Shown in pieces: positions 14,950 through 42,276 of a stretch of DNA of 64,000 bases. The notes below the pieces were generated by a model. The model saw only the letters and a program-made list of their open reading frames with translations, made no database searches and was not told the origin of the DNA. Source of the DNA: Eledone cirrhosa (taxonomy: Eukaryota); assembly GCA_964016885.1 (NCBI GenBank), contig OZ024746.1:25978001-26042000 (forward strand). Reading direction: 5' to 3'. Both the position numbers and the translations under genes were made by a program. Each line of letters opens with the position of its first letter. Position 1 is the stretch's first letter.

Positions 14950-16470
14950 ATAATAAACGAAAGATAGTTACTTTAGATCATGTCTATTTTATTATACGTA
15001 TTTCGAAGATGCAAGGCTTATGTATAACATAATCCAAAACATGTTTTTGTCAGACAAAATGCATAGGAGATGCAGAATTTTTTTGATTTACTGGCAGTCA
15101 AACAAGCTGGACAGATTGGTGACAACCGAGCATATGATTAGAAAAAAAAACCCAACACAGAAGATGTTACATAAGTGGGAGAAAAATACAGTTGGACTTA
15201 ACGTTTTTGAAATTATTTAAAATATGATGTAATTAGTTTGGTAAAAAAAAAAAAGTAAATATAGACTATTAGTCAGTTTATATGTTACTTATATTAGCTA
15301 CTATACCAAAAAATATATATATTTTATACCAAAGAAAAAATATTCGAGGATGCTAAAGTAATATTGTAATTATATGATAAAGAAAAAAAAATTAGGATTA
15401 CAAAATTCAAAAGTAAATTATCTATGCTTATGTATAATTTGAATTGGTATTATATGAGTGGAAAAATATTTAACAATTGGTATGACTTTTTTTTTTTATA
15501 TAACTGACTTCAAAAGAAGAGATGCAATTAATTTATCCTTTCAACAATTATATTTAAGTAGGTAATATACGAATAGAGGAAAATATTAACTATTGGTGTA
15601 ACTATTATTATAAGAAAAGTGTATGTATTATAGCCTAGTTTATAAATTTATATTAAATTTAATTTACTTATATACTAACTAAAGATAAGGTAGATGAAAA
15701 AGTTATAATGAAAAAATATATTAGTTTACTTATTTTGTCTATTCGTCTTTATTTTCTATCTAAACATAACAAAATTGAATAAAAATCATATACAAAGAAA
15801 TATTACTTATTTAATTTTTTTTAATTAAATTTAACTAAAAACGCTATGAAACGTTTTTGAAAACTTGTGAAGACAAGAACTAAAGATTTCAGAGCGTTTA
15901 TGGATAGTTAATTACCTATTATAAATGATATGTAGAATTTCTGTGGTACAGAAATTAAATCCTTTAGATACGGAAGCATTTTTATAAGGCAAAGCATTAG
16001 AAAGTTTCTGCCAAGAAAGGGAATATTCAATATTATTATTTTTAAGGGACCAAATCAATTCAGAGAGGGACGTACTAAATCTTTTATCTTCTTTTAAACG
16101 AGTGATGATTGTACCATCTTTCTTTAAATTTTGAAGAGGTGGCACCAATATAATTATAAAACTTATCTTTTGTTTTAACTATGCATTTATAAACTAAATT
16201 ACAATCAAGACAGTTATTATTTAGTGGGAAAAAATTCTTTTTTTTTTACAATTATGTTACTATTCAATGATGCCACTCTGTGTCTATAAGTCATCAGGTT
16301 TTTGTCGTCTATGTTGTTGGTGTAATCGTTGCTAATTGAGATGTTGTTTATTCTATTAGTGATTCCAAGATTACCATTATGAGTTAACTCCCTATGATTA
16401 GTTCTGAGATATCCATTGTTAATTTTAGCTATATTTTGGGCACTAATTTTAATAGTCGAGTAGGAAAGTT
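14950..16470 (-). mobile_element. Degenerate Penelope-like element (GIY-YIG remnant plus 3' UTR)
   Basis: Minus-strand PLNNNCLDCNLVYKCIV..YIGATSS..STSLSELIWSLK..FCTTE, matching the 26.6-27.7 kb ORF; hammerhead-like motif at the 3' end. Confidence 0.8.
14985..15061 (-). ncRNA. Degenerate type-I hammerhead ribozyme motif
   Basis: attttgt-CTGACAA-(weak stem II)-GAAA-tacgta-TA-ataaaat; core G8 is A. Confidence 0.6.
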
Positions 16471-19400
16471 TGATTGTATGTTGGTCAAAGATTCTACTAT
16501 ATTTATGTGTTTTTTTATATCATCGTTTAATCTCTATTTTTCCATGCTTCCATGGGTTAGATGGACTGTCACATTATGAGACAAGTCAGGTCTGGAGATC
16601 ACGTCTTGCTCATGTAGAACTATATTTTGGCTTGGTTTTTACAGCTAGAGGCTTTCCTAACACTAACCATATAACAGTGTGGATTGGGTGCTTTTTATCG
16701 TGACATCATCATCATCACCATCGTTTAACGTCTATCTTCCATGCTAGCATGGGTTAGATACCGAAAAAATCATCTTACAGGGCAGACTGGGCACTTTTTG
16801 TCATGTCACCAGCATGACCACCGTACAGGATAGACTGGGGCTATTTTTCATGTCGCCAGATCATTGGTGCTTTGTTGTTCATGTACATTACTCTTACATA
16901 TCAATCGGACCATGCTCATCTCATTTCTTTCCAATCATCATAAGTCCTCTATACACCAATGCCCAAGTTTCACTTCCATGCAGCTTTGCCATTCATACAC
17001 ACACATCTGCCTTTCATTGAGAGAAAAATCTTTTGTAGGCTAAACCCCACTCTCACCCCATTCCTTATCACTTCCCTTGCAGCCTGGCCAAGGATACAAG
17101 CACCTTAGTATTGAAATGTGGAAGTGCTGGTGTTATGATAAAATTCACCCTGTACACTCTGCTATAGGAACCATGCCAATATGGAACGTATGAGCAAGAT
17201 ATAGACATGTGATCTGCTCGTCTAGTCTCAGAATATGATAACTTGTGTAACCCATGCAAGTGTGGAAAATAGATATAAAAGTGTTGATGAAGACAATGGT
17301 GATGATGACATACACACACACACATTCCTTGAGTAGAATATGTAAAGCAGATAGATGATTTACAATCCAGTGATCAGAAATATGTTAAACTTCCACCATT
17401 ACACAATCTCAATTCTTGCAACTAGTTTACATCTGCTAGTAGAGATTTACAATAAATATTCCATCAACACAGCCTCACAGAATTCTAGGAAAATATCAGA
17501 TTTCTTTCTCTCCAATGTCACCAAATTAATTCGTTTACTACACCCAGTTGTTAGGTCAGATTTCACACACCACGAGGACAGATTGAATAAACTATGAATA
17601 TTGTTGCATATAGCATACCTAATAATATTCATAGTTGCATTTTCTTGTGTATGAGAAATTTTATACTAAAATTAAGGGGAAAAATATACATAAGTACATC
17701 ATCAGTTTTCAGAAATTTTTACTGAGCATAAAAACACAAATTTTGATGACTAGATTGCAAATACATGTTGGTATCAATTGCATATAAATGGTATTTGATA
17801 TCATCATGATCATCATTTAACATCTATTAGACGGGTTGTGACATTATGAGATAGGTCAAGTCCGGAGAGCACATTTTGCTCATATGGATCTGTTATTCAG
17901 CTTGGTTTCTATGCCCTTTCTAACTTCAACCACATTACACCGAAATGACCATTGCACTGAAAATACAGGGTTAACTGGGCATTTTTTATAACCAGCATGA
18001 TCACCTTACAGGGTGAACTGGGAGCTTTTGTTGTTGTGGCATCAGATCAGAACACAGGGTGACTTTTGATGCATTAGTAATATTTGCTAACCATCTGATT
18101 GTTTTACATTCTTTAATGTCACGAGAAACTGAATATTGAAGTGAAATACAATTCTGATGGATACCATGGTACAAGTTCACAAAAAAAAATTGCATAGACA
18201 TTCTCCAGGGTTGTATTAAACACATGGATGTAATTTATTTCTATCATTTTAGATTTAGAAACTGGGGTCTTATTTATTGTACACAAAGAAATACAATATT
18301 TTATATAATATGTTTGATAATATCCACAAATAGTTACGAACATTATTAAACATAACATGTTTGATAATATCCATAGTTACAAATATTATTGCACATAGCA
18401 TATCTAATAATAGAGAAAATGAATACATCTGCTTATCTATCAAAGTTTCATTACTTTGTCAAATATTTATTTGATTTGAAAACTATGTTTCAAATTTTTG
18501 AAAATTTCATAGAAATCTCATGGTTAACAAAGATACATGATGACAAGTTGATCTTTAGCAAAAACTGTGAATTCCAGGAATTTTGAGTGTAGATGAGTTG
18601 ATTTTGTCAATTGAACAATAAATGGTATGAATTTGTGATGTATAGAGTACAACATCTAAACATGAGATAAAGAGATAAGCTAAAGGTGCGAGTGAGAGAT
18701 AAATATTGATAGGTTATAAGCAGTCACTGATCTGCAGTGATCAAGGTCGAAAGCTGGGCAGAACAACCTCTACTTCTATTAGAATTTGCTACCACTGGTT
18801 GTACCATCTTTTATATGAGAAGATGATCTACTAAGCCCGGGTACTCAATGGGATTTGTGCACCAAAATATCCAAGTTGTTGTTTATTAAGATGCCATTAT
18901 GGCAATGAATAAGAAGAGAAAATGGCTGATATTTTGGATACAATAACAAGCTGGTTACATTTAATTTTGCTACACACACACAAACAATTATATATATACA
19001 TATACATATATATATATATATATATATATATATATATATATCCATGGACTCAGAATTATATGGACAACATTGTGGTATTTAAACCTGGTGGAGCCCATCC
19101 TTCTCTAGGTCTGAACACATTCAAATTCTGGGTGAGAGGAAGAGAGAGGGGGAGAGTCAACCCCAGTACCGGACCAATACTTTATTTATCAGACTTGAAA
19201 GGCAAAATTGATCTCGGTGGTATTTGAACTCAAAGCCACAAAGAGCTAGAATGAATACTGAGCAGTAGTCTGTCTATTATTCTAATGATTGCTACCTTCA
19301 TGTATACATCTATCTATTTATATATATGTGTGTGTGTGTGTGTACATACATACACACAGTCCACAAACATAGCTTTGTTACAATATGGTGAAGAAACCAA

Positions 19401-19517
19401 GTATCACACACTACCCGTAAAACAATGGAACATATACTGGTGTTAATAAACATGATTCTCATTATTCAATTATCTAATAAAACAACCTTTTACAGTATAC
19501 CTGTGACAATGGAAGTT

Positions 19518-19690
19518 ATATATATATATATATATATATATATATATATATATATATATATATACACATATATATATATATATATATATATATATATATA
19601 TATATATGTGTATATATATATATATATATATATATATATATATATATATATATATATATATATATATATATACATATATATATATACATA
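19518..19690. repeat. (TA)n microsatellite
   Basis: Direct observation. Confidence 0.97.
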
Positions 19691-20647
19691 CTTGATAGCC
19701 AAAAGGCAAGAAATTTTACATGGAAAATAAACTTGTTTCGGATTTCACAATATCAAGTGAAATTGTATCTGTAGAATCAATGTTATTTTTGTTGTAACAT
19801 TGCCAAGGAAAAGACAATGTTAGATATAGAAACTAATAGAAATAAGTAATTTAAAACAAATTCTTTGAAGAAAGTAGTGAAAAATAAAACTAGAAGAAAC
19901 AAGTGAATATTGAATGTAAATCAAGTCTTCCTTATTTAGAAGTGAATCAAGGAAAGAAGTGAATCAAGGAAAGAATAGAACTAAACATGGAATAATGTTG
20001 CTGCTAGTTGATACAGAGCTATAGAGAGAGTGTGGTGGACAGAGAGACACTGAGGCGGTCTGGTGTCGCCTTTTGTGGATAGGGAGACAACCAGGTGGAC
20101 AAAGAGAGACAGCCTAGAGAGCAGAAAAACATAGTGACTGTCTGGTGTAGACTCTGGTAGATATAGAGACAGCCTAGTGAACAGAAAGACATTAGAGAGA
20201 GACTTGATAGCATCTAGTGGACATTAAGACATAGAGACAATGTGGGTAGATTCTGGTGGAGAGAGAGGGTGTCTGAGGTAGCCTCTGGTGGACAGAGAGA
20301 GACAGTCTGTGATTGATTCTGGTAGACATAGAGATAAGGAGACAACATGGCACCTGATGTAAGATCTACATAAAACTTTAGAACATCGTTCAAGAACTGT
20401 AAAAACAATAAAATGTTTGTAATGTTTATGATGTGTGAGGGAGGAGGAGAAAAACAATATATAGATTCTGAAATTGGCAGATTTTGGTAATGAGAGATTT
20501 CTAGCTGACAACAATGTCAATATCTCTTATTTTGATGGAGAATAGTGTGGGTGAGTGTATGTATAAACACACAAATAAACACATATATGAACACACACAC
20601 ACACGTCTGTGTGAGTGCGTGTTTATATGTATTTGTGTGTGTATGTA

Positions 20648-41706: not shown

Positions 41707-42026
41707 TATATATATATATATATATATATAGATTCCTGTTGTTGGTGGGGGGGGGGACCACAGTTACAAAAGGTACTCAATACATTCGTAGAGTATAGGC
41801 ATCTTTATTATTCCAGTTGATTTCATATGAATGAAAGTTCTAGTCCTGTAGAAGTCATTTCTATATATATATAGAGATATAGATATATATATATAAGCAA
41901 AGGGATATTTAATTTGTTGGTAATTCAACAAATATATTTATAACAGATTCGAAGCACTCGACAGATTTTCTGGTGTATAATATCAATGATATTAATAAAT
42001 GGAAATTATATTTATAAAACCATATT

Positions 42027-42087
42027 TATTCTATTATATATATTTCAAGGGTACTAACATTTTGGTACGCTCTCATCAAATAAAATA
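42027..42087 (-). ncRNA. Hammerhead motif with one core mutation (TTGATGA)
   Basis: tattttat-TTGATGA-gagcgtacc..agtaccctt-GAAA-tatata-TA-atagaata. Confidence 0.65.
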
Positions 42088-42215
42088 TAAAGTTTGTTTT
42101 ATAAATATTGACATATCTAGGAATGAGACCTTAATGGTTGAAGTTTCACCTGGATAGTACTTGAACCGTTTAGGTCTCATTCCTGGATATGTCAATATTT
42201 ATAAAACAAACTTTG

Positions 42216-42276
42216 TATTTTATCTGATGAGAGCGTACCAAAGTTTTGTTACCCTTGGAATATATATAATAGAATA
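42216..42276 (+). ncRNA. Hammerhead motif with one core mutation (GGAA)
   Basis: tattttat-CTGATGA-gagcgtacc..ttaccctt-GGAA-tatata-TA-atagaata. Confidence 0.65.

Follow-up and report, generated by a model that had tools for sequence, protein, structure and literature searches.

A candidate AAUAAA polyadenylation signal in helix I of AUA-type hammerheads from Hydra-clade Penelope-like elements of Eledone cirrhosa

A 64,000-nucleotide (nt) stretch of the Eledone cirrhosa genome (assembly GCA_964016885.1, contig OZ024746.1, positions 25,978,001 to 26,042,000 of the forward strand), hereafter the window, contains hammerhead motifs for which an original prediction had proposed one conserved scaffold. 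Almost certainly, these motifs are type I hammerheads located in the pseudo-long terminal repeats (pseudo-LTRs) of Hydra-clade Penelope-like elements (PLEs), belonging to one sub-lineage and mostly decayed here. The element class and the dimer architecture are already known. The sequence of helix I in these hammerheads is probably held constant by a second role of its 3' arm, which also reads as a candidate AAUAAA polyadenylation (poly(A)) signal across or just behind the predicted AUA cut. The AUA cut site within the Hydra clade, the fixed C·C or C·U mismatch in a covarying helix II and the frozen AAUAAA-bearing helix I were not found in print. No title or abstract matched polyadenylation signals or stem-loops in pseudo-LTRs, or AAUAAA in hammerhead retrotransposons; Lünse et al. 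(2017) may describe such variants. PMC2377424 does not mention polyadenylation or AATAAA, and the available part of PMC4209133 mentions neither a poly(A) hexamer nor an AUA site.

In the motif, A17 and the 3' arm of helix I together spell AAUAAA, the predicted cut falling after the first A. We collected 216 copies, comprising 13 sub-families and one single copy, using search patterns biased towards intact cores, so that numbers of copies cannot be read as rates of decay, and counted covariation on family majorities. Of 215 copies, covering the 13 sub-families, 207 have AATAAA within −1 to +17 of the cut, compared with 0–6% in upstream windows, and the hexamer lies at or near the cut in all nine window copies. 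In sub-families T, K and K2, helix I has changed with compensatory pairs and the hexamer is kept at +4, +5/6 and +12. Moreover, a pairing-preserving A-to-G change breaks the hexamer at −1, and 57 of the 59 copies with such a change carry a second hexamer at +4.

Reverse transcriptase (RT) identity to family A is 78% for B, 70% for D, 60% for F, 57% for C, 50% for K, 47% for T, 45% for U and 42% for H. In an IQ-TREE analysis of 20 sequences, the five window families (A, B, C, D and F) are monophyletic as predicted, with support of 98.9/99 (SH-like approximate likelihood ratio test/ultrafast bootstrap), and together with K, V, T and N they are separated at 100/100 from U, H, J and three outside proteins. 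Broken copies were entered in these trees in pieces, with gaps; the trees include no open reading frame (ORF) for sub-families E, E3, G and K2, and A2 was left out. K, V and T carry AUA hammerheads too, but with different helix I sequences; H and J carry GUA hammerheads. Between the families, synonymous sites are saturated, at or near random: identity at four-fold sites is 0.29 for A–C (random 0.30), 0.43 for A–B (random 0.33) and 0.42 for A–F (random 0.33). Since the core and helix I remain unchanged across families with near-random four-fold sites, the proposed selection on the scaffold is supported. Rooting on the sequence P0077 was dropped as a long-branch artefact. A pseudo-LTR swap of family D with A/B was dropped as well, the RT and endonuclease trees both placing D beside A/B.

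The two neighbouring helices follow other patterns. Two-sided changes are found at 7/7 basal pairs of helix II and at 0/7 pairs of helix I (ten sub-families with shared arms), so that the covariation looked for is present in helix II and, as two-sided changes, in helix III, and is absent from helix I. At the fourth position of helix II, three pairs from the core, there is a fixed mismatch flanked by covarying pairs (C·C in 11 of the 13 sub-families, C·U in the other 2), which is absent from 43/43 distinct hammerheads outside this genome (described below). Stem II had been said to differ between families; its sequence does, while its build of covarying pairs and fixed mismatch is conserved.

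The majority 6-mers of helix III are UAUGUA, UAUAUA, UACGUA, UGCGCA and UGAUCA, with two-sided changes between families. Both inner pairs, which can form only between two molecules, are complementary in 13/13 sub-family majorities and in 203 of the 216 copies. A search requiring a purine at the third position gave 8,222 matches (control 430), and the UGAUCA family accounts for 77 of the 100 listed. Among 44 outside loci anchored by a hairpin (see below), with no palindrome filter, the dimer-only pairs are complementary in 26 of 31 cases. These comparisons support a dimer-type helix III, but one already published for PLE hammerheads. The two-sided changes thus bear out the dimerising helix III that had been proposed, and the tgtgca variant cited for it does not: TGTGCA (493) and its non-pairing mirror TGCACA (472) are two equal CpG decay products of TGCGCA, and because tgtgca is as common as its mirror, it reflects neutral post-insertion decay and is not evidence of selection.

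Related elements outside this genome provide a separate comparison. Among 79 metagenome loci with related ORFs, 57 carry a hammerhead, 43 of them distinct, all with a GUH site and none with C·C. When these loci are grouped at 70% RT identity, A(A/U)TAAA starts at −1 to +7 in 8 of 24 clusters, compared with 1.6% in nearby windows; in shuffled sequences the mean is 1.05 clusters and none of 5000 shuffles reaches 8, and on the 5' arm side the hexamer is found in 1 of 24. Particularly, the ATTTTAT/ATAAAAT arms of the window recur together with a GUA site in one locus (L347), although its RT is only 35–40% identical to those of the five window families and lies outside their clade, which points to convergence.

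An alternative that we regard as unlikely is that helix I is fixed by docking on the C·C/C·U mismatch of helix II, or as a folding helper read by a protein, AAUAAA being a by-product of the A-rich arm. The constancy of the mismatch between covarying pairs, together with its absence from the outside hammerheads, agrees with docking, and a hammerhead from an Anolis PLE is described as cutting only with the element protein present (PMC11167929), in line with a folding helper. Against docking, K, K2 and T keep C·C and yet have changed helix I with compensatory pairs, the hexamer sliding to new offsets, and the outside clusters carry the hexamer without C·C.

More doubtful is the reading given by the original prediction, in which selection tunes catalysis through the AUA triplet and a dimerising helix III, the conservation of helix I going along with theirs. 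AUA is present in 13/13 sub-families and in 0/44 of the hairpin-anchored outside loci, it is described as a natural hammerhead site that is slower than GUC/GUA after transcription (PMC1636495), and the outside helix III pairs given above favour dimers. Catalytic tuning nevertheless leaves the fixed helix I sequence and the persistence of the hexamer unexplained; the single AUA origin in one clade is equally explained by descent, and the palindrome is general to PLE hammerheads. Selection for the AUA triplet in itself was not borne out, A17 and helix I conservation being better explained by the overlapping AAUAAA. Recent common descent with A+T mutation bias, and no sequence-level selection on helix I, is very improbable and largely refuted by the saturation result: it fits A, B and D, which share flanks and 70–78% RT identity with an all A-U/G-U stem, and fails for A–C and A–F (57–60% RT identity, four-fold values above), for the adjacent helix II, in which every pair has changed on both sides, and for the same arms recurring in the distant L347 lineage.

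Downstream of the cut, the elements contain a second RNA feature. The 3' ends of the copies, measured from the cut and including the AT overlap with the target, are located at +52–56 (15/39) or +144–145 (21/39) in family A, and at +53 (20/51) or +133–138 (30/51) in family C. A bulged hairpin of the form RCUC-stem-loop-stem-2 nt bulge-GAGY starts at +55 and +148 in A and at +52 and +142 in C, so that each discrete 3' end falls a few bases before one hairpin copy; the inner stems change in a compensatory manner. The combined pattern of hammerhead end and hairpin has 32,008 genome matches (control 11). The hairpin is also found 3' of 29 of the 43 outside hammerheads and is readable in the published consensi Hydra-2_Amil, Hydra-1_Ajap and Hydra-2_Ajap. 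Among 37 copies that enter the ORF, the 5' junction lies at the cut in one, more than 60 nt upstream in 19 and downstream in 17. A cleaved 5' end as the usual template end was rejected on this count, and the scattered junctions mean that the template is usually not a linear RNA bounded by cuts, which is in line with internal initiation in the Anolis Poseidon element.

On the basis of these sequence patterns we tentatively suggest that many Hydra-clade hammerheads might act as a switch coupling ribozyme folding to polyadenylation, so that one pseudo-LTR would give rise either to polyadenylated mRNA or to a template read through as far as the twin hairpins. With helix I open, the RNA would be polyadenylated as mRNA; with helix I paired, the hexamer would be hidden and the transcript would read through the pseudo-LTR to the hairpins. 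Because a template that contains the hairpins has to extend beyond the hexamer, helix I pairing would suppress polyadenylation. Two hammerheads would pair through helix III to cut, and dimer cutting would split or remove the poly(A) signal. The element's protein would bind a hairpin and begin reverse transcription a short distance (a few bases) to its 5' side, with nicked (TA)n DNA acting as the primer on an AU-rich stretch and an uncut, read-through or circular RNA as the template. In human immunodeficiency virus type 1, the polyA hairpin is an RNA stem at the repeated ends that hides AAUAAA, one repeat copy being read through. The resemblance is a works-like analogy only, with no ribozyme and no shared ancestry. 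If true, such a switch would supply a function for PLE hammerheads whose cutting is poor and which insertion in vitro does not require. The helix I hexamer, kept over saturated divergence and recurring in other animals, makes a possible role in processing specifically and cheaply testable; the lineage is also a natural collection of AUA-type dimer hammerheads with a fixed C·C site, numbering in the tens of thousands, and the twin hairpins predict where reverse transcription would start.

Several observations weigh against the candidate poly(A) signal and the switch built on it. The hexamer is absent from 16 of the 24 outside clusters and, in this genome, from the GUA-type families H and J; in the table of Hydra hammerheads in PMC8557442, only three rows have A(A/U)UAAA at the cut. 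A+T makes up about 80% of the region. The second hexamer in 57 of 59 copies rests on perhaps 2–3 independent changes, copies and sub-families being related. The trees used homologues with Hydra motifs, the named Hydra references not being included. Predicted pairing of the helix III 8-mers is weak for some, such as AUAUGUAU (−2.2 kcal/mol) and AUAUAUAU (−3.2 kcal/mol). Moreover, hammerhead mutants of Poseidon are reported to leave insertion in vitro unaffected (PMC11167929).

The pattern of 3' ends resembles that described for the Anolis carolinensis element Poseidon (Frangieh et al. 2024, PMC11167929), which has two internal starts of reverse transcription 3' of the hammerhead matching genomic tail ends, A+T-rich targets and uncut RNA as the main template. 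Poseidon belongs to another clade, and its starts are located in an AC-rich stem-loop within the ORF and share no homology with the target, whereas the ends of the window lineage lie in the 5' untranslated region (UTR) at AU stretches beside a duplicated hairpin.

The elements were identified from the ORFs linked to the motifs. A strict hammerhead pattern has 48,394 matches (24,399 + 23,995) in the 3.0-Gb genome, compared with 0 for the reversed-pattern control, far above chance, and 0 in viral contigs. Family majorities have the CUGANGA and GAAA core, NUH site and helices I–III of a type I hammerhead, so that the family consensi keep the catalytic core, as the prediction required. All five window families link genome-wide to RT-endonuclease ORFs located upstream, downstream or on both sides (A: L044, L047; B: L186; C: L221–L223, L233; D: L328, L335; F: remnants in L061–L080), which supports the predicted link of the termini to PLE ORFs and excludes non-LTR retrozymes (short non-coding tandem repeats) for these families. 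The hammerhead precedes the ORF by 230–270 nt and recurs about 1 kb downstream of it, and because it lies on both sides, it is part of a pseudo-LTR. The hammerhead-to-hammerhead unit measures 3.5 kb (L044) or 3.6 kb (L223), above the <3 kb tendency of the clade because the 3' UTRs are about 1 kb. In families A (39 junctions), C (51) and H (16), the 3' junction is almost always with (TA)n.

Intact frames of 738–746 amino acids (loci L049 and L060) encode in a single ORF an RT with YRDD followed by a C-terminal GIY-YIG-type endonuclease (VVY..YVG, R, E, N). Family A has RIRWR and KSDKTNN; DKT is also found in B, C, D, K, T, H and J, and V has DKS. The linker CNCRNKSNC, CDLC..EE and CCRH are present in both the window ORF and L049, and CCHH is absent from the intact frames. 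Neither the window ORF nor the intact family A ORF has a Pfam match, so that the domains are labelled from their motifs, and a Protein Data Bank sequence search gave none. These motifs agree with the features given for the Hydra clade by Craig et al. (2021, PMC8557442), namely DKT for DKG, RW[K/R], CxCx5C, CxxC/CxH, no CCHH and (TA)n insertion, with elements generally <3 kb as a tendency; the clade assignment was made against this feature list, the trees containing homologues with the same motifs.

The window lineage shares with the published Hydra clade the single RT-GIY-YIG ORF, DKT, CxCx5C, (TA)n insertion and a type I hammerhead near the 3' end. In contrast, all hammerheads in File S2 of PMC8557442 have C15.2-G16.2 (GUH) and mostly a short helix II, whereas the window lineage has U15.2-A16.2 (AUA), a helix II region of 26–42 nt with C·C, and units of about 3.5 kb. 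The hammerhead listed there for Hydra-1_oBim is a different sequence. Metazoan PLE hammerheads described by Cervera and De la Peña (2014, PMC4209133) are likewise of type I, lie in pseudo-LTRs, occur in thousands of copies in consensus families and form opposite-strand pairs 100–700 bp apart, like the stubs and inverted pairs of the window. They are described as highly variable in sequence with a conserved G10.1-C11.1, whereas in the window lineage helix I is frozen and 10.1-11.1 varies. A palindromic helix III has been proposed to act as a dimer with weak activity (PMC4209133; PMC6765202).

In the window, the six predicted motifs lie exactly at 14985–15061(−), 22672–22742(−), 25023–25087(−), 29099–29164(+), 42027–42087(−) and 42216–42276(+), all with the helix I arms ATTTTRT/ATRRAATA and the helix III hexamers assigned to them. 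Five read TATTTTRT-CTGANGA-helix II-GAAA-T(RYRY)A-TA-ATRRAATA on the minus or plus strand; in the 14985 motif, a C replaces the first T of TATTTTRT. The catalytic core is intact only at 25023 and 29099 among the seven copies named. The 14985 and 22672 cores read CUGACAA (G8>A), a variant with 445 copies genome-wide, about 1%, versus the 48,394 strict matches; 42027 has C3>U and 42216 has GGAA instead of GAAA. The seventh, near 2237, is a fold-back of two hammerhead 3' halves with no full motif. The flanks, taken to be dissimilar, are near letter-for-letter the same in families A, B and D (25023, 29099, 42027, 42216) in the extended helix I flank and tail. Two motifs (14985 and 25023) had been placed downstream of same-strand endonuclease-type ORFs; both remnants are real and continuous with their motifs, which are not only 3' ends, being pseudo-LTR parts found upstream of full ORFs too.

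The family A copy, 24975–27741(−), is 5'-truncated, ends in a (TA)n-like repeat and is 85–94% identical to the full-length copy in L044. Its ORF remnant, 26581–27741(−), contains the RT end and thumb, the CxCx5C linker and the GIY-YIG-type endonuclease (VVY..YVG, CxxC, CxH), with a single in-frame stop at 26743; it is 97% identical to the intact L049 ORF by tblastn and has 121 scored relatives at 91–100% identity. The hammerhead of this copy, 25023–25087(−), has an intact core, helix III UAUGUA, a predicted cut after 25031 and AATAAA at 25021–25026, and its minimum free energy fold contains helices I and II (z −2.3). Single-strand folding z-scores are weak for 8/9 window pieces.

Family F is represented by a 5'-truncated, frameshifted copy at 14941–16514(−), 82–83% identical to L062/L064 and placed in family F in the tree, with an endonuclease remnant at 15849–16519. 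Its hammerhead, 14985–15061(−), is decayed (G8>A, G10.1>A), with helix III UACGUA and AATAAA across the cut at 14988–14993. A family C 3' UTR and pseudo-LTR at 22544–23560(−), 86% identical to L223, ends at the second (+136) terminus; it contains a decayed hammerhead at 22672–22742(−) (G8>A; UGCGCA>UGUGCA) with AATAAA across the cut at 22675–22680, and the first bulged hairpin (ACUC-N3..N3-2 nt bulge-GAGU) at 22601–22627(−). The family C fold-back, 2089–2335, carries only hammerhead 3' halves (2215–2234(−) and 2233–2252(+)) and a hairpin at 2146–2172(−), its left arm stopping at the second terminus and its right arm at the first. A tail-only fragment of family C, 3949–4015(+), is located between two (TA)n tracts and stops at the second terminus.

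Families B and D are present as inverted pairs. The family B stub, 29021–29214(+), contains the intact hammerhead 29099–29164 with a cut after 29156 and AATAAA at 29156 and 29161; its inverted partner, 28817–29021(−), has a hairpin at 28913–28934 and a hammerhead 3' half at 28994–29013(−) that the prediction had not listed. The family D stub, 41863–42116(−), contains the hammerhead 42027–42087 (C3>U), and its inverted partner, 42156–42286(+), contains 42216–42276 (GGAA for GAAA). Rfam gave no hammerhead family among the best 150 of 171 window matches, which are mostly microsatellite noise, and window-wide repeat finding was dominated by (TA)n.

Two further hammerheads with a GUA scaffold, at 27856(+) and 28290(+), were also missing from the prediction. 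The first is the core of a short repeat (27746–28220, helix III ACUAGU) that abuts the truncated end of the family A ORF; related copies occur in tandem or inverted, terminate in (TA)n and have no linked ORF in 20 loci, resembling retrozymes. The second lies in a stub of family H at 28286–28371(+), a GUA-type Hydra family with helix III ACCACUGGU and many intact 714-amino-acid ORFs in the genome. In family U, the sister of the AUA group, a hammerhead-like motif (L271, some 220 nt upstream of the ORF; L273) has the core CAGAAGA, and its long helix III is not palindromic, which may mark a monomer type. Loci L003–L290 contain many more type I hammerhead families, mostly with a palindromic helix III of 2–8 nt between A15.1 and U16.1; some have a helix II of 40–50 nt, and one frequent family has the non-palindromic AGAACU.

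Other repeats occupy the neighbouring regions of the window. Two remnants of RTs resembling those of long interspersed nuclear elements, 12668–14977(−) and 40670–41686(+), have a PHD-finger-like insertion in the RT region (Pfam RVT_1 and PHD) and are unrelated to the PLEs, and the family C copy is abutted at its 5' end by another non-LTR RT remnant, 23556–24566(+). A tandem array with an 18-bp unit covers about 900 bp at 10948–11844, and a degenerate 1.6-kb (TA)n/(TG)n tract at 20500–22150. In addition, a near-perfect 250-bp fold-back at 60780–61028 is the top Rfam noise match, and a similar sequence lies beside a family U copy in L280.

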